A DNA stretch of 64,000 nt from a virus, in UHGV virus genome UHGV-0112973; one strand, written 5' to 3'. A program made the position numbers and the translations under genes. Below the pieces are notes generated by a model. It did no database searches, was not told the DNA's origin, and worked only from the letters and a program-made list of their open reading frames with translations. Positions 15,093-51,299 of this stretch are shown here, piece after piece. Each line of letters begins with the position of its first letter. Position 1 is the stretch's first letter.

Positions 15093-15109
15093 ATTGCCCT
15101 AATAAATAT
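15093..15109 (+). promoter_or_regulatory. C1-operator-like site in divergent promoter region
   Basis: ATTGCCCTAATAAATAT vs remembered consensus ATTGCTCTAATAAATTT. Confidence 0.4.
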
Positions 15110-20319: not shown

Positions 20320-20394
20320 GATGGTGTAGCTCAGCGGTAGAGCAGTTGGCTGTTAACCAACTGGTCGGTGGTTCGAATCCATCCACCATCGCCA
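20320..20394 (+). tRNA. tRNA-Asn (anticodon GTT)
   Basis: Cloverleaf by hand: acceptor GATGGTG/CACCATC, D-arm GCTC..GAGC, anticodon loop CTGTTAA, T-arm GGTGG-TTCGAAT-CCATC, encoded GCCA end. Confidence 0.9.
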
Positions 20395-20396
20395 AT

Positions 20397-20472
20397 GCCG
20401 GTTTAGCTCAGTTGGTAGAGCGCCTGCCTTGTAAGCAGGATGTCAGCGGTTCGAGTCCGTTAACCGGCACCA
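20397..20472 (+). tRNA. tRNA-Thr (anticodon TGT)
   Basis: Acceptor GCCGGTT/AACCGGC, anticodon loop CTTGTAA, T-loop TTCGAGT, encoded CCA. Confidence 0.9.
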
Positions 20473-22472: not shown

Positions 22473-22548
22473 GGCCCTTTAGCTCAGTGGTTAGAGCTGG
22501 CGACTCATAATCGCACGGTCACCGGTTCAAGTCCGGTAGGGGCCACCA
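22473..22548 (+). tRNA. tRNA-Ile (anticodon CAT, lysidine-type; resembles E. coli ileX)
   Basis: GGCCCTTTAGCTCAGTGGTTAGAGC...CTCATAA...GGTTCAAGTCC...GGGGCCACCA. Confidence 0.85.
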
Positions 22549-42213: not shown

Positions 42214-43257
42214 GTGAAAGCCGTAATTACTCCCTTTGTACAAAAAGAGCTTGGCGTCGCCACATTCAAAGTGGATCAGGAAGTCAGAAAGCTGGTGGAG
42301 GCTGGCCGTAAATTTATTATGGAGCCGGTGCCGCGTGAGTTAATCGAGCACATGGACGACGGCCTCGTTGTTTCCGAGCAAACTATGGCAACAAATGAGG
42401 CGTTGCAGCCGTTTTTTAACAGCGATGAACTGTTTCGCCGTATTGGTGGAATTGACGCGCTGGTGGCGTGGTTGCGCAGGAAAGAGGGGCAATGCCAGGC
42501 CGCAGATCGTAGCTGGTGTGACAACCATATTGTCCACGCTGAACGAGACAACAGCGCGGTGTTGTTGTGCTGGCATCACGATAATCATTACCGGATGCGT
42601 GGTTTTAATGAGCTGAAAGAAACGCTGCATAATAATCGCGTTAACTGGATACTGGATGTCGCTCGTCAGGAAATGGGCCTTTCTGATGGTCATGATTTAA
42701 GTATTCAGGAGCTGTGCTGGTGGGCTTTCATGCGCAACATGATCCACCTCATGCCGGAAGAAGTCTGCCGTATATCAATAAATAAGGTGAGGGCTGCAAC
42801 GCAGGATAGCGGACCCCTGAAAGAGGCGGATATTCGCCCGTATGACGATCGCGCTACAGCATATGTTCAGATGATGGAAGAACGCGCCGCGCCGATGCGT
42901 GCAAAAGTATGCCCTGTGGATGTTGACTCCGACCCTGGCATGGCGCATTTCAAAATACCAAAACTGCAATCGCTAAAATTACCTGAGTACATGGACTTTG
43001 TTGCTTCCCGTCCATGCTGTGGGTGTGGAGCTGCGGGAGCTGGCGCTCACATTACGCCTTATATCGTTCGTCATAGTCGATTATGCGCGCATGACATTTA
43101 CGCAATTCCTCTGTGCCAGTCATGCCAGCGTGATATTGAGCGTGACCGCGATAATTGGGAGAAGACGCACGGCAGGCTGGCGATGCATCAACGATTGTTC
43201 TTTGATTACGCGCTTGGAGTCGGCGTTATCACAAGTCACTCGTCGAGCGTTAGATAA
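42214..43257 (+). CDS. Cys-rich hypothetical protein (post-doc position)
   Basis: 347 aa, GTG start with AAAGGTG RBS; C-terminal Cys/His cluster. Confidence 0.5.
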
Positions 43258-43258
43258 A

Positions 43259-43275
43259 ATTGCTCTAATGTATTG
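43259..43275 (+). promoter_or_regulatory. C1-operator-like site upstream of late-activator gene
   Basis: ATTGCTCTAATGTATTG. Confidence 0.45.
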
Positions 43276-43345
43276 CTATTTCTTTAATCGAGGGTATTAT
43301 ATTCGTCGTTGATTAGTTGACATGGGCTAATCAGTAGGTGACAGG

Positions 43346-43798
43346 ATGTTACTTAACTGGCAGGGACGCCACTTCATGGAAATAAATCACTCACGAATTA
43401 CATCGTATGAGATTGCGGATTACATGATCCGCACTAAATCTCTTCTATCAGCGAAAGAACTCGCAGCAATCCTTGAAAAGGAATACCCGCATCTGGATGT
43501 CGATAAGCGCGATGTTTATCTGCGCTTAAAGGCTATCGCTGTGTCTAAGTATTCGTCTGTTTTGATTGATGACAGTACACGCCCACGTAGATTTCAGATC
43601 CACTCTCTGAATCCTGAATTCTTTCGCCGCAGCCGCGCTCCGCGCCGGTTTGATGAAAAACTCCAGAACGAACTCTATATGACGCAGGACGAAAAGGAAC
43701 GCCGGGAGCACCAGCCTTGGGTAATGGCGCGTCAACTTTTCAATAAGGTGGCCCGTCAGCACCGTCATTACGGTAATGCCACATCCGCACGTATCTGA
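43346..43798 (+). CDS. lpa: late promoter activator Lpa-like protein (start may be the internal Met at 43376)
   Basis: 150 aa ORF just upstream of pacA and preceded by a C1 operator. Confidence 0.55.
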   Translation: MLLNWQGRHFMEINHSRITSYEIADYMIRTKSLLSAKELAAILEKEYPHLDVDKRDVYLRLKAIAVSKYSSVLIDDSTRPRRFQIHSLNPEFFRRSRAPRRFDEKLQNELYMTQDEKERREHQPWVMARQLFNKVARQHRHYGNATSARI

Positions 43799-43883
43799 TT
43801 GATTGCTTGCCCGTTCCGGGCCTTTTGACATGTGACTTTCGTTACCCTCGCGTCAAAAAGAGTTTTTACGAAAGGAAGCATAA

Positions 43884-45077
43884 GTGACCTGGGACGATCA
43901 CAAGAAGAATTTTGCTCGCCTGGCGCGAGATGGTGGTTACACCATCGCACAGTATGCCGCCGAGTTTAATCTTAACCCTAATACCGCACGTCGTTATCTC
44001 CGTGCCTTCAAAGAAGACACCAGGACAGCGGACAGCCGCAAGCCAAATAAGCCAGTCAGGAAGCCACTAAAAAGCATGATCATTGATCACTCTAATGATC
44101 AACATTCCGGTGATCACATTGCGGCTGAAATAGCAGAAAAACAAAGGGTTAATGCCATTGTCAGTGTCGCAGTCGAGAATGCGAAGCGCCAAAATAAGCG
44201 CATAAATGATCGTTCTGATGATCATGACGTGATCACCCGTGCCCACCGGACCTTGCGTGATCGCCTGGAACGCGACACCCTGGATGATGATGGTGAACGC
44301 TTTGAATTCGAAGCTGGCGATTACCTGATAGATAACGTTGAAGCGCGGAAGGCCGCGCGCGCTATGTTGCGTCGGTCCGGGGCCGATGTTCTGGAAACCA
44401 CTCTTCTGGAAAAGTCTCTTTCTCATCTCCTTATGCTGGAGAACGCCAGGGATACGTGTATTCGCCTGGTGCAGGAAATGCGCGATCAGCAAAAAGCCGA
44501 TGATGAAGGTACTCCGCCTGAATACCGTATCGCGAGCATGCTAAACAGCTGTTCCGCGCAGATAAGCAGTCTGATCAACACCATTTACAGCATCCGGAAT
44601 AACTATCGAAAAGAAAGCCGGGAGGCGGAAAAGCACGCTTTGTCTATGGGGCAAGCTGGCATTGTTAAGCTGGCATACGAACGAAAGCGTGAAAATAACT
44701 GGTCAGTGCTGGAAGCAGCTGAATTTATCGAGGCGCATGGCGGGAAAGTGCCGCCCCTGATGCTGGAGCAAATCAAAGCCGATCTGCGTGCTCCTAAGAC
44801 CAATACCGATGATGAGGAAAGGCAAACTGCCGTCGGTGGTCCTTCTCTTGAAGATCTGGACAAAGTTGCGCGAGAACGGGCCGCCAACCGCCGCGCCGAT
44901 GCCGCATTGTGGATTGAGCAGCGTAGGGAAGAAATCGCCGATATCGTTGATACAGGCGGTTATGGAGATGTTGATACTGAAGGTGTATCAAACGACCCAT
45001 GGCTGGAACAAGACCTGGACGAAGACGAGGAGGAAGACGAAGAAGTTACCCGCAAGCTATACGGGGATGATGATTAA
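43884..45077 (+). CDS. pacA: terminase small subunit PacA
   Basis: 397 aa, GTG start; recognised as P1 PacA; contains the pac site. Confidence 0.93.
44077..44272 (+). promoter_or_regulatory. pac: pac packaging site (clusters of TGATCA/G hexamers with Dam sites)
   Basis: Four TGATCA elements at 44077-44115 and TGATCG/TGATCA elements at 44205-44272. Confidence 0.8.
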
Positions 45078-46561
45078 TGGCCAGAAGTTGCGTAACGGAT
45101 CCACGTTGGCGCGAGCTGGTGGCGCTATATCGTTATGACTGGATTGCTGCCGCTGATGTTTTGTTCGGCAAAACACCTACCTGGCAGCAGGATCTGATTA
45201 TTGAGTCTGTGCAGGAACAGGGTAGCAAGACATCTGTTTCGTCTGGTCACGGTACCGGGAAATCAGACATGACTTCTATCATGATCATGTTGTTCATAAT
45301 CATGTATCCAGGTGCCCGTGCCATTATCGTTGCGAACAAAATTCAGCAGGTAATGACCGGTATATTCAAGTACATCAAGATAAACTGGGCTACTGCCACC
45401 AGCCGTTTCCCATGGCTTGCTGATTATTTTGTTCTGACAGAAACCGCTTTCTATGAGATTACTGGTAAAGGTGTATGGACTGTAGTACCGAAGGGCTTTC
45501 GTCTGGGAAGTGAAGAAGCTCTCGCCGGTGAACACGCAGATCATCTTCTGTATATTATCGATGAAGCCTCCGGTGTCAGTGATAGAGCTTTCGGTATCAT
45601 CACCGGTGCTCTTACCGGACAGGATAACCGCATCTTATTGCTGTCACAGCCTACACGCCCAAGCGGCTATTTCTACGATACACACCATAAACTGGCCAAG
45701 CGTCCTGGTAACCCTGATGGCGTTTATACGGCGATCACGCTTAACAGTGAGGAATCACCGTTGGTAACGCCAGCATTTATCAAAATGAAGCTGGCGGAGT
45801 ACGGCGGGCGTGATAACCCTATGTACATGATTAAGGTACGCGGCCTATTCCCTAAATCACAGGATGGCTTCCTTCTTGGACGTGATGAGGTTGAACGTGC
45901 AACGCGGCGGAAAGTCAAGATTGCCAAAGGATGGGGCTGGCTTGCATGTGTGGACGTTGCTGGTGGTACGGGACGGGATAAGTCCGTTATCAATATCATG
46001 ATGGTGTCCGGCCAGCGAAATAAACGCCGTGTAATCAACTATCGAATGCTGGAATACACAGACGTTACAGAAACGCAGCTTGCCGCCAAAATTTTCGCAG
46101 AATGTAATCCTGAGCGATTCCCCAATATCACCATAGCGATAGACGGCGATGGCCTGGGTAAAGCAACGGCGGATCTGATGTACGAGTATTATGGTATTAC
46201 CGTACAGCGTATACGCTGGGGTAAAAAGATGCATAGCCGTGAAGATAAGAGCCTGTACTTTGATAAACGTGCTTATGCCAATGTTCAAGCCGCAGAGGCC
46301 GTAAAATCTGGTCGTATGAGACTGGATAAGGGTAATGAAACTATTGAGGAAGCGTCGAAAATCCCTGTAGGGATTAACTCCGCAGGTCAATGGAAGGTGA
46401 TGAGTAAGGAGGATATGAAGAAAAAACTCAACCTGCACTCACCAGACCATTGGGATACATATTGTTTCGCTATGCTGGCGGATTATGTTCCCCAGGATGA
46501 AGTGCTTAGCGTCGAAGACGAAGCGCAGGTTGATGAAGCTCTGGCATGGCTTAATGAATGA
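45077..46561 (+). CDS. pacB: terminase large subunit PacB
   Basis: 494 aa; recognised as P1 PacB. Confidence 0.93.
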
Positions 46562-46563
46562 AT

Positions 46564-46580
46564 ATTTGCTCTAATAAATT
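46564..46580 (+). promoter_or_regulatory. C1-operator-like site after pacB
   Basis: TTTGCTCTAATAAATTG. Confidence 0.45.
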
Positions 46581-46899
46581 GTGTTTTTTAGCTACCGATG
46601 TTACATTGAACCTGACCTCTTGCGCCTTGTGGCATTTTCGGTTTATGCTTATCAGGCACCTCATTAAAACGGGTGCCGGGATTGGCCTCCCGCTTAAGTC
46701 TAAGGCGATACAGACGCCGCTCGCGTCTTTTTTTGTATCGGCGTACACGCACACCTCTACAATGGTGGGCTGTATGGGGCTACCTTCGGGTAGGCTGGTT
46801 ACCTTGGACGCCAGTAAGGCCAACTCCGTACAGTCCACCGCCAGCAAGATTGGTCTCTTCTGCGGTGGTTACATACCAACGTCTAAGGAGGCTGCCAAT

Positions 46900-47121
46900 A
46901 TGGCTACTATCCCTACCCCAACTCATCCTGAATTTATCTGGCGCTTTTACTCCTGCCAAAAACGTCACTATCACTTCGTTATTGCACCGACAGAAGATGA
47001 GGCACGTTCTCAGCTTCCTGACGCCCCATGTATTTTCTCTGCCCGTTTTTCCACTGATTCACGCAATTCTCTCAGTTACTGGTGCCTCCCTGTTAACGCT
47101 TCTGCTCAGGAGGGACTATGA
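46900..47121 (+). CDS. small protein translationally coupled to the antirepressor-like gene (icd-like position)
   Basis: 73 aa; AAGGAGG RBS; stop overlaps next start (ATGA). Confidence 0.5.
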   Translation: MATIPTPTHPEFIWRFYSCQKRHYHFVIAPTEDEARSQLPDAPCIFSARFSTDSRNSLSYWCLPVNASAQEGL

Positions 47122-48230
47122 GAACATCGTTAGTTACCCGTGAAGAGATGATCGAGGCAATTGAACAGCACACTGCCTGTATCAGTACCAGGGATATACC
47201 TGGCGTTATTGCCAACTACTTCATGATCACCAAACAACTTTACCGGAGAAAGGACAAACACGCGGTTCACCGCATTCTGCTAACCGATATCCGTGAATAC
47301 CTGCTCGAACAGGGTCATCTAAATTACGCAACCGTCGCAGCCGAAGCACGCAAGGAGGCACACAGAATGAAAGCAACTAACGTTAAATCAGAAAAAATTT
47401 ATGCACCTTCAGTTCAGGAATCGGAACTGGTGGTTGTTCAGAATCAGCCGGATGAAATTCCCGTTCTGGAATGGCAGGGAGTACGTGTCGTGACAACCGA
47501 AACTCTTGCTAGAGGGTATGGGGTCGATGAAGCCAATATTCGCAACAATTTGTCTCGCAACCTTGACCGCTTTGAAGAAGGTAAGCATTACTTTCTTCTA
47601 ACTGGTTTAAAATTAAGAGAATTTAAGAACAGAGTAACCGGAAGTTACTCTGTTGGTAAGAACGCCAGAAGCCTTACACTCTGGACAGAGCGCGGCGCTG
47701 CACGCATGTCTAAGATCGTGGACACAAATGAAGCATGGGCATTCTTTGAAAAACTGGAAGACAGCTACTTCCGGCAAAAAGAACAGCAACCGGTTGCAAT
47801 CCCCCAAACATTACCAGAAGCCCTACGCCTGGCTGCCGAACTGGCTGAACAAAAGCAGCTTCTGGAACAGAAAGCCCACCAGCTAAATCAGCAGCTGGTG
47901 GCCGCCGCTCCTAAAGTCGATTTTGCCGACCGGGTATCAGTAGCTAAAGGGATCCTGATTGGGAATTTTGCAAAGGTTGTTGGACTTAAGCAAAACGCGC
48001 TGTTTGCCTGGTTACGGGAGAACGGCATCCTGATAGCGTCCGGTGGACGTAAAAATGTGCCGTTCCAGCAGTACATCAATGCGGGGTATTTCACGGTGAA
48101 AGAAGTGGTGCTGGATGATGAAGATGGCTACCAGATACGGTTGACGCCTCAATTAACGGGTAAAGGCCAGCAGTGGTTGACGCGTAAACTGCTCGATGCT
48201 GGCTTGTTAAAACCGGTGGCGGCTGAATAA
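47118..48230 (+). CDS. antirepressor-like protein (ORF6N-like N-terminal and KilAC/Ant-like C-terminal domains)
   Basis: 370 aa; ...VVTTETLARGYGVDEANIRNNLSRNLDRFEEGKHYFLL... and ...FAWLRENGIL...YINAGYFTVKEV. Confidence 0.6.
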   Translation: MRTSLVTREEMIEAIEQHTACISTRDIPGVIANYFMITKQLYRRKDKHAVHRILLTDIREYLLEQGHLNYATVAAEARKEAHRMKATNVKSEKIYAPSVQESELVVVQNQPDEIPVLEWQGVRVVTTETLARGYGVDEANIRNNLSRNLDRFEEGKHYFLLTGLKLREFKNRVTGSYSVGKNARSLTLWTERGAARMSKIVDTNEAWAFFEKLEDSYFRQKEQQPVAIPQTLPEALRLAAELAEQKQLLEQKAHQLNQQLVAAAPKVDFADRVSVAKGILIGNFAKVVGLKQNALFAWLRENGILIASGGRKNVPFQQYINAGYFTVKEVVLDDEDGYQIRLTPQLTGKGQQWLTRKLLDAGLLKPVAAE

Positions 48231-48262
48231 TGGAAGAATGCCCGGTTGATGCCGGGCATAAT

Positions 48263-49114
48263 TTATTGCGCGCTTTCGGGGTTGTCGTTTACTGGCTGCC
48301 CCTTCTTGGTTTTACGGCTGCGCGTAACTGATGCGGCTGATTTGACCTTTTTCTCTTCGCGAGTGATGGCAATTTGTTTTTTTACATTTTCAATATCTGC
48401 CAGGCGATATATTTTTGCCTGCGGCCAGCGGTCGCAGATGATCGGTTCTATAGAGTCATAAAGGCTAAATTTTGCTTTTTCGAATTCACCGTTGATGATG
48501 ATTCCATCACGGAGAGTTTCATCGCAGATAAACACGCCACACAGCGGTACATGGTAACTAACTGATTTACCATCATTGTAGTTAGGGCTACTGGAGATGT
48601 AGTGGACGCGCAGCATTGTTTCGCTAAAGCCGTGTACACGCATACGGAATTTTTCATCCTCCGGGTACTGCCTCATTAGCTCTTTTGTTGCTTCCAGGTT
48701 CTCTATGTATTTCGCACTGTGCTCATTGATCCCCGCGCTTTTTTGGATGCGAATGTCCTTATCAATCAGATGAATAATGCGGCCAGCGGTCATGTTGACG
48801 CTGTTCACAGCTTCTGTCTGATAAGTTGTAACCTTGCGCACACCGCGAAGGATGTTAGGCACTGGATATAAAATAGTCTTTGGGATATTGAGGTCTGGGT
48901 ACTGTTCCAGTTCCCGCGCCATTAAAGTCCATTTATCAATTTCAGCCTGAATGCTGTCAGTTTCTTTGAACGGTAGAACGACAACCGGGCGTACAGGACG
49001 ACCGTCGCTGGCTGTATCAACGTGTTGGGCGCGTGCAACAGCTTTTTTTAGAAAGAGATCCCTGAAGCTGACGAACTCCTGGTACAGTTGTTCGCCGTAG
49101 ACATAATTTATCAT
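48263..49114 (-). CDS. c1: C1 repressor of lysogeny
   Basis: 283 aa; recognised as P1 C1. Confidence 0.93.
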   Translation of the reverse strand: MINYVYGEQLYQEFVSFRDLFLKKAVARAQHVDTASDGRPVRPVVVLPFKETDSIQAEIDKWTLMARELEQYPDLNIPKTILYPVPNILRGVRKVTTYQTEAVNSVNMTAGRIIHLIDKDIRIQKSAGINEHSAKYIENLEATKELMRQYPEDEKFRMRVHGFSETMLRVHYISSSPNYNDGKSVSYHVPLCGVFICDETLRDGIIINGEFEKAKFSLYDSIEPIICDRWPQAKIYRLADIENVKKQIAITREEKKVKSAASVTRSRKTKKGQPVNDNPESAQ

Positions 49115-50267: not shown

Positions 50268-51299
50268 ATGTCCAATTTACTGACCGTACACCAAAATTTG
50301 CCTGCATTACCGGTCGATGCAACGAGTGATGAGGTTCGCAAGAACCTGATGGACATGTTCAGGGATCGCCAGGCGTTTTCTGAGCATACCTGGAAAATGC
50401 TTCTGTCCGTTTGCCGGTCGTGGGCGGCATGGTGCAAGTTGAATAACCGGAAATGGTTTCCCGCAGAACCTGAAGATGTTCGCGATTATCTTCTATATCT
50501 TCAGGCGCGCGGTCTGGCAGTAAAAACTATCCAGCAACATTTGGGCCAGCTAAACATGCTTCATCGTCGGTCCGGGCTGCCACGACCAAGTGACAGCAAT
50601 GCTGTTTCACTGGTTATGCGGCGGATCCGAAAAGAAAACGTTGATGCCGGTGAACGTGCAAAACAGGCTCTAGCGTTCGAACGCACTGATTTCGACCAGG
50701 TTCGTTCACTCATGGGAAATAGCGATCGCTGCCAGGATATACGTAATCTGGCATTTCTGGGGATTGCTTATAACACCCTGTTACGTATAGCCGAAATTGC
50801 CAGGATCAGGGTTAAAGATATCTCACGTACTGACGGTGGGAGAATGTTAATCCATATTGGCAGAACGAAAACGCTGGTTAGCACCGCAGGTGTAGAGAAG
50901 GCACTTAGCCTGGGGGTAACTAAACTGGTCGAGCGATGGATTTCCGTCTCTGGTGTAGCTGATGATCCGAATAACTACCTGTTTTGCCGGGTCAGAAAAA
51001 ATGGTGTTGCCGCGCCATCTGCCACCAGCCAGCTATCAACTCGCGCCCTGGAAGGGATTTTTGAAGCAACTCATCGATTGATTTACGGCGCTAAGGATGA
51101 CTCTGGTCAGAGATACCTGGCCTGGTCTGGACACAGTGCCCGTGTCGGAGCCGCGCGAGATATGGCTCGTGCCGGAGTTTCAATACCGGAGATCATGCAA
51201 GCTGGTGGCTGGACCAACGTAAATATTGTCATGAACTATATCCGTAACCTGGATAGTGAAACAGGGGCAATGGTGCGCCTGCTGGAAGATGGCGATTAG
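50268..51299 (+). CDS. cre: Cre tyrosine recombinase
   Basis: 343 aa; matches remembered P1 Cre essentially throughout. Confidence 0.98.
   Translation: MSNLLTVHQNLPALPVDATSDEVRKNLMDMFRDRQAFSEHTWKMLLSVCRSWAAWCKLNNRKWFPAEPEDVRDYLLYLQARGLAVKTIQQHLGQLNMLHRRSGLPRPSDSNAVSLVMRRIRKENVDAGERAKQALAFERTDFDQVRSLMGNSDRCQDIRNLAFLGIAYNTLLRIAEIARIRVKDISRTDGGRMLIHIGRTKTLVSTAGVEKALSLGVTKLVERWISVSGVADDPNNYLFCRVRKNGVAAPSATSQLSTRALEGIFEATHRLIYGAKDDSGQRYLAWSGHSARVGAARDMARAGVSIPEIMQAGGWTNVNIVMNYIRNLDSETGAMVRLLEDGD

Follow-up and report, generated by a model that had tools for sequence, protein, structure and literature searches.

A probable second immI-type operon with a c4 RNA between pacB and c1 of a P1-like phage-plasmid

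Introduction

Phage P1 is the textbook case of tripartite immunity, in which immI usually figures as one locus with two known specificities, those of P1 and P7. P1-like phage-plasmids are also important carriers of resistance genes. The subject of the present analysis is a stretch of 64,000 nucleotides from the viral genome UHGV-0112973 (the whole stretch is called the window below), which is a P1-like phage-plasmid, and within it a 1.7-kb insert between the terminase gene pacB and the repressor gene c1. An initial annotation, made by a model from the sequence alone, had proposed that this insert is an operator-small ORF (open reading frame)-antirepressor module laid out like immI. The control of immI in P1 itself is documented in the annotation of NC_005856 and has been summarized (PMC8546580).

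Related parts are known from a second setting. In the prophage Gifsy-1 of Salmonella the short RNA IsrK acts in trans, opening the ribosome-binding site (RBS) of the coupled ORFs that follow and activating their translation, and when transcription reads through, an RNA of ~80 nt is processed from the product; IsrK has been described as a homologue of P4 seqA (PMC4825925). Set beside these systems, the pacB-c1 insert is likely to be a second operon of the immI type in its phage-plasmid, with all parts present and probably functional, and its c4 RNA would define an immunity specificity distinct from those of P1 and P7.

Results

Organization of the insert

All parts of P1 immI have a counterpart in the insert, and they follow one another in the P1 order, so the proposed mirroring of the immI layout holds. 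The features are as follows.

46565-46581, plus strand: C1 operator TTTGCTCTAATAAATTG, equivalent of Op51/Oc4, aligned with the annotated P1 Oc4
46579-46607, plus strand: putative promoter resembling P51a (P2c4), with -35 TTGTGT, a 17-nt spacer and an extended -10 TGT-TACATT (as a whole TTGTGT-17-TGTTACATT), from position-for-position alignment with the annotated P1 P2c4
46620-46649, plus strand: putative promoter resembling P51b (P1c4) and PisrK, with -35 TTGCGC, an 18-nt spacer and -10 TATGCT, from alignment with P1 P1c4
46656-46733, plus strand: IsrK-type leader RNA (Rfam RF01394, 60.8 bits against a gathering score of 50, model positions 1-77 of 77)
46682-46688, plus strand: leader element a1, UUGGCCU, co-varying with c4
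46698-46705, plus strand: leader element b1, GUCUAAGG, co-varying with c4
46712-46728, plus strand: intrinsic terminator of the leader, hairpin and U tract, from a terminator scan
46758-46845, plus strand: c4 antisense RNA (Rfam RF01695, 75.9 bits against a gathering score of 45, E 4.7e-13, full length, 1-87 of 87)
46802-46810, plus strand: c4 element b', CCUUGGACG (CCUUGGAC(G) in the comparison of classes), in the loop of hairpin 2
46817-46823, plus strand: c4 element a', AGGCCAA, in a single-stranded junction
46850-46856, plus strand: downstream target a2, UUGGUCU, from complementarity and co-variation
46880-46888, plus strand: downstream target b2, CGUCUAAGG, from complementarity and co-variation, overlapping the icd Shine-Dalgarno sequence (46885-46891)
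46900-47121, plus strand: icd, 73 codons, ATG at 46900 (NCBIfam NF033153, 49.8 bits against a cutoff of 25)
47118-48230, plus strand: ant (Ant1-like), 370 codons, its start overlapping the icd stop as ATGA

The operator lies just past the end of pacB (46561), where the initial annotation had noted a C1-operator-like site, and it deviates from the P1 consensus ATTGCTCTAATAAATTT by two mismatches, both at the outermost positions of the 17-mer. The window holds 13 operator-like sites with at most three mismatches, against 0.30 expected by chance. The other 12 C1-operator-like 17-mers were located at 15093, 19638/19649 (an overlapping pair), 30067, 33691, 33740, 35833, 43259, 49209, 49673, 49756 and 61606; spread over 15093-61622, they are consistent with the dispersed P1 operator set. 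In related loci the operator occupies the equivalent place in every upstream region that could be extracted except one (L058). Both promoters were placed by alignment alone, against the annotated promoters of P1 and against a Stx phage. The -35 hexamer of the upstream, P51a-like promoter (46579-46584) overlaps the operator, as is the case for Oc4 and P2c4 in P1. The downstream, P51b-like promoter can also be aligned with TTGACT-17-TATATT of Stx phage P13374, and its predicted start at ~46656 coincides with the first position of the Rfam isrK model match.

Leader, c4 RNA and target sites

The operator and the small ORF are separated by 318 bp (46582-46899) without a credible gene, which agrees with the roughly 300 bp of non-coding DNA originally reported, and the suggestion that this stretch encodes a c4-like antisense RNA is borne out by the Rfam C4 match and by target sites over the icd RBS. 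The mature c4 is predicted at ~46764-46842 (~79 nt) by alignment to the 77-nt c4 of P1, with which its closing stem and ends align. The fold was tested on an alignment of 11 sequences comprising three sequence backbones and a Stx phage. It consists of a 17-bp closing stem, 100% paired, and two hairpins, 27 pairs in total, with 93.3% of the cells paired and compensatory changes in 12 of the 27 pairs; none of 500 shuffled alignments reached these values, and slid controls fell to 30-55%. The four cognate helices that the window c4 can form measure 7, 7, 8 and 9 nt, and the order and spacing of a2 and b2 match those of the annotated P1 a2/b2.

Long ORFs do cross the leader (46558-47121 and 46673-47143 on the plus strand, 46551-46847 on the minus strand), but they were rejected as genes, all of them overlying conserved RNA structure. 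The only leader-overlapping ORF that was scanned, 46673-46900, gave zero family matches. The same region carries protein calls in public records: PGAP places an 'ash family protein' pseudogene over the isrK/C4 leader (46645-46875 in the window, and in relatives), and the JL22 record has the hypothetical proteins gp120 and gp121 over its leader region. All three look like protein calls laid over an RNA region, comparable to 'orf45' in Gifsy-1.

icd and ant

The initial annotation of the small ORF was right as to its 73 codons and its strong RBS, an AAGGAGG Shine-Dalgarno sequence at 46885-46891, and one base off as to its start (46900 rather than 46901). Its product and P1 Icd share 80% identity over residues 8-73 (66 residues), and this identity together with the NCBIfam Icd-like match answers the question of its relationship. 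The translationally coupled ORF was likewise correctly taken for an Ant-like protein of 370 residues: identity to P1 Ant1 amounts to 57%, the N-terminus is conserved, and the protein contains the ANT/KilAC domain (Pfam PF03374, residues 258-359, 1.5e-31) as well as an ORF6N domain at residues 116-200. Homology to P1 Ant1 is not collinear along the whole protein, residues ~95-225 aligning poorly. At the DNA level the N-terminal 95 codons of ant are 69% and the C-terminal 146 codons 82% identical to P1 ant. An Ant2-like in-frame start was found at 47367 (codon 84, Met84), preceded by AAGGAGG at 47352-47358; the ant2 start of P1 is likewise codon 84. Both icd and ant are intact.

Specificity classes of c4

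For a comparison of pairing elements, IMG/VR was scanned with Icd, which gave 79 loci, and the upstream regions of P1, P7, RCS47, JL22 and two E. coli plasmids were added. Specificity was scored as the longest contiguous helices, G-U pairs allowed, between the a'/b' segments and the target regions; RNAduplex energies of c4 against the targets were dropped as a measure, being noisy and prone to spurious pairing by the stem sequences. Across the more than 80 loci, a1/a'/a2 and b1/b'/b2 sort into 12 classes, and within every class the three a elements change together, as do the three b elements. The pairing of c4 with its targets is therefore taken as real, because the a and b elements co-vary across classes.

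With its own downstream targets, the c4 of the window class forms helices of 7+9 nt; the targets of other classes, those of P1 and P7 among them, never give it more than 4+5 nt, and foreign c4 RNAs do not exceed 6+6 nt on the window targets. Own helices were the longest in 11 of the 12 classes when set against targets of any class differing in both elements; the exception is the RCS47 class, in which a tie at 8+8 with the L033 class was observed. With 29 of 66 sequences, the window class is the commonest of its leader type. Both RCS47 (a GAGAC, b GUCAAAGG) and the pacB-c1 module of JL22 (a GAGAC, b GCAAAAGG) differ from it. Compared with the window type, modules of the RCS47 and JL22 types are also ~21 bases longer between leader terminator and c4, and icd of the JL22 type starts with GTG. 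JL22 carries another c4 at its canonical site (42800-43900), which joins the P1 a-type UUGACAG to the P7 b-type GAUUGUG and is thus a recombinant class outside the 12 from the IMG/VR sample. Since the window class is distinct from P1, from P7 and from every other class seen at pacB-c1, we infer that the module defines a separate immunity specificity and would be regulated independently of a canonical immI.

Proposed control of the operon

By alignment to P1, the upstream promoter, overlapped by the C1 operator, would be shut in the lysogen, and the weaker downstream promoter would stay on and supply a leader-c4 transcript. Termination within the leader would release a short IsrK-like RNA with a1 and b1, which would offer these elements as decoy sites for c4. 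Read-through would give the longer transcript, from which the ~79-nt c4 may be cut as in P1 (note that the presence of the RNA is given by the covariance models, its processing by the P1 precedent). The b' loop and the a' junction of c4 would then pair with b2 and a2 ahead of icd, a pairing shown by the co-variation. Following P1, pairing at b2 would mask the icd Shine-Dalgarno sequence and leave icd untranslated, and ant, coupled to icd via ATGA and needing icd translation, would be off as well. Conversely, where c4 is absent, outrun or titrated, Icd and Ant1/Ant2 would be made, and Ant would inactivate C1, its presumed target. Possible triggers would be entry into a cell without this c4 class, or the short leader RNA acting as a decoy like IsrK in Gifsy-1.

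The same parts could also be controlled predominantly in the manner of IsrK, the long transcript silencing itself in cis, the short leader activating in trans and the processed trans-acting c4 playing a minor role. The leader is a member of the isrK family with a conserved terminator and is 84% identical to lambdoid leaders against 61% to the P1 leader, experimental data exist for IsrK (PMC4825925), and in the minimum free energy fold of the precursor a1/b1 are paired with a'/b' in cis. We nevertheless regard dominance of this mode as unlikely, although worth keeping in view, and the two modes are not exclusive. The agreement of the c4 closing stem and ends with mature P1 c4 counts against its dominance; an RNA of ~80 nt is processed from the c4-like part in Salmonella too (STnc1160; PMC4825925); and if c4 is an immunity factor acting in trans, its a/b classes would be expected to diversify among co-infecting relatives, as they have. 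The P1-like scheme, with c4 as the trans-acting repressor of icd-ant, is accordingly the one retained below as the working model.

Position of the module: additional copy or relocation

The boundaries of the insert are given by the following features.

45077-46561, plus strand: pacB (terminase B), ORF, left boundary of the insert
48263-49114, minus strand: c1 repressor gene (NCBIfam phage_rep_C1 equivalog, 612 bits), right boundary of the insert
48238-48259, no strand assigned: 9-bp GC-rich hairpin between the ant and c1 stop codons, from the terminator scan

The P1 gene order is kept around it, with pacA at 43884-45077 ahead of pacB, and coi and cre (50268-51299) beyond c1. PacB is 98.5% identical to P1 PacB over the 68 C-terminal residues compared and 99.6-99.8% identical to the RCS47 and JL22 proteins over all 494 residues, and C1 is 98.9% identical to P1 C1. 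In P1 and P7 the stop codons of pacB and c1 are 24 bp apart, as against 1.7 kb in the window, and homology to P1 breaks off exactly at the pacB stop codon and restarts at the c1 stop codon. The genes ant and c1 converge, with the hairpin at 48238-48259 standing between the two; it is a possible bidirectional terminator, and sequence comparison did not find it in the pacB-c1 spacer of P1. Should it terminate poorly, derepressed transcription of ant would run antisense into c1. Elsewhere in the window, Rfam detected three tRNA genes (regions 20320-20469 and 22473-22545).

In P1, immI maps between sim and kilA-repL at 48.1-49.7 kb, and c1 at 93.2-94.1 kb. The initial annotation was correct in placing the two far apart in P1 (~45 kb), and neither P1 nor P7 has a module at pacB-c1. 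The description of the locus as a rearranged immunity circuit, by contrast, did not hold in the relatives. In pE2865-1 the pacB-c1 module is of the window class, and the canonical site holds a P7-class c4-icd-ant1-kilA-repL; in JL22 a third class occupies pacB-c1, and the canonical c4 is the P1a/P7b recombinant. Because both keep the canonical immI, the pacB-c1 module is an extra paralogue in these two relatives, orthogonal at the RNA level, and not a relocation. Separate icd-ant modules, two or three of them, also occur on single viral contigs (L014/L080/L085, that is IMGVR_UViG_2698536372_000019; L019/L076; L056/L081; L065/L082).

For the window genome itself, the module could be the sole immI, the canonical copy having been lost, e.g. 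in the IS1 event that truncated repL, and the circuit relocated beside c1. The window starts in the 3' part of IS1 (InsB ORF at 22-399), which abuts codon 164 of repL and leaves no more than 119 C-terminal codons of that gene (415-771). No further icd, ant or c4, and neither kilA nor sim, was found within the 64 kb, and the IS1-repL junction was not found in PLSDB. There is also precedent among P1-like plasmids for loss of immI together with repL (pJIE250-3) and for its replacement by another icd-ant copy, which in pSvP1 lies in the res-mod region (Venturini et al.; PMC6906374). However, kilA and the canonical immI would be located past IS1, the latter at a site expected 1-3 kb outside the window edge, which makes its absence within the window uninformative; both relatives checked have kept the canonical copy; and nearly all matching plasmids contain 2-6 matching places, with up to six in E. 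coli plasmids. A sole, relocated copy is thus unlikely, and an additional operon the likelier state of the window genome.

Origin of the module

To judge from its identity levels, the module is a mosaic of P1-type parts and of lambdoid parts as found in Stx phages and in isrK of Gifsy-1. In the operator-promoter segment, identity to P1 is 68%. From the leader through c4 and the RBS region to the fifth icd codon, identity is 76-84% to Stx lambdoid phages as against 54-70% to P1, and the five codons (MATIP) match those of the ORF behind the Stx phage leader. On the same grounds the body of icd is P1-type, and ant is P1-like at both ends with an ORF6N middle.

In Stx phage P13374 and ~160 other lambdoid phage records, an isrK+C4 leader ~79% identical to 46657-46900 of the window precedes a Rha or antirepressor gene. 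The P13374-type leader has an a/b class of its own (a UUGCUAC, b CAAUC(G/A)AGG), and the annotated start of the coding sequence falls inside its C4 RNA.

Evidence weighed against a functional second immI

Several observations weigh against a second, functional immI-type operon. The presumed constitutive P51b-like promoter fits the consensus poorly (3/6 and 4/6, with an 18-nt spacer), and a generic sigma-70 scan upstream of c4 called neither promoter. The cognate helices b'-b1, b'-b2 and a'-a2 each hold one G-U pair. In its middle third, Ant departs from P1 Ant1 and has an ORF6N domain instead, which is missing from the P1 protein. The canonical immI site of the window genome falls beyond the left edge, past IS1, and because IS1 disrupts the lytic replication gene repL, the whole element may be a defective phage.

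The weakness of one promoter, together with the PGAP pseudogene flag ('ash family protein') over the leader, would fit a decaying, non-functional remnant of an old insertion. This explanation is very improbable: neither ORF is broken and the two are translationally coupled, compensatory changes across classes have preserved the RNA structure and each of the six pairing elements, and the 'ash' pseudogene is itself a protein call over an RNA region.

The exchange in Ant bears on its target. With the central third replaced by ORF6N, binding of Ant to C1 is not assured, and the protein might not act on P1 C1 at all but on the repressors of other prophages in the same cell, as part of a lambdoid-derived cassette for prophage-prophage conflict, or serve another role; the lambdoid-like leader, c4 and first codons, which precede Rha or antirepressor genes in Stx phages, would be in line with this. 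On the other hand, the ends of ant are P1-like in DNA (69% and 82%), the Ant2 start is conserved, and the operon carries a C1 operator within a P1 backbone whose C1 is 98.9% identical to that of P1. A target other than C1 therefore appears improbable, and C1 is kept as the presumed target of Ant in the immI-type operon.

Prevalence and annotation

The full module was found in 264 of 5426 complete E. coli genomes, a full pacB in 541 of the same 5426; by genome counts, carriers of the module are about half as many as carriers of pacB. It is also present in 267 PLSDB plasmids and in four phage records, with 97.8% as the best match overall. The insertion between pacB and c1 had already been noted in 2019 for pTZ20_1P and RCS47 (Venturini et al.; PMC6906374). 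The arrangement is therefore widespread, and neither rare nor new. Database labels over the region read 'hypothetical', 'roi' and 'ash family' pseudogene, and in the literature searched no description was found of the c4 RNA of the module, of its operator, of its specificity class, or of co-resident distinct c4 classes.

Discussion

The class data suggest that the range of c4 specificities in natural P1-like phage-plasmids goes far beyond the two of P1 and P7. Two aspects are possibly new, namely how broad and combinatorial these specificities are, and the routine coexistence of orthogonal modules. A wider reading, which we put forward tentatively and hold somewhat short of belief, is that a natural P1-like phage-plasmid holds a single c4-icd-ant module or several (at the canonical site, at pacB-c1 and at res-mod), of mutually orthogonal a/b classes, of which at least 13 have been seen, and that together these form an RNA-barcoded repertoire of immunity and anti-immunity. 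The pacB-c1 module would then be the commonest add-on, built by recombination with lambdoid isrK cassettes. If so, a resident would be able to silence more relatives with every module added, and an incoming phage would gain an extra chance of an antirepressor that the resident cannot silence. The prevalence, position and diversity of these modules bear on which P1-like elements coexist, on which of them induce each other, and on how immunity evolves via swaps of short RNA pairing elements. For the present locus the value lies mainly in annotation, where 'hypothetical', 'ash family' and 'roi' calls can be replaced by operator, leader RNA, c4 RNA, icd and ant.

The P4 immunity system (CI RNA, seqA/seqC) resembles the model proposed here in that an RNA processed from the leader pairs with repeated sites located both upstream and downstream. 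Unlike the window locus, P4 CI works through transcription termination on replication genes, and P4 has no icd-ant. The isrK-orf45-anrP locus of Gifsy-1 and the Stx leaders, like the window, have an isrK leader with a terminator, a c4-like RNA and a translationally coupled gene of antirepressor type (PMC4825925); in contrast to the window, these loci are without a C1 operator or an icd body, and their downstream gene is of the Rha/AnrP type and acts on lambdoid regulators.

The pacB-c1 insertions of RCS47, pTZ20_1P, JL22 and vB_EcoM-673R5 share both site and gene content with the window, at 92-98% nucleotide identity, while their records annotate only ant, or 'hypothetical'/'roi' genes, and leave c4 and the operator without annotation. 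From immI of P1 and P7, finally, the window module differs in its a/b specificity, in a leader and c4 that are 61-70% identical to P1, and in an Ant with ORF6N. It agrees with them in the equal order and near-identical spacing of operator, both promoters, a1/b1, c4, a2/b2, icd and ant, and equally in the placement of b' in the loop of hairpin 2, of a' in the junction and of b2 over the icd RBS, and in the ATGA overlap that joins icd to ant.

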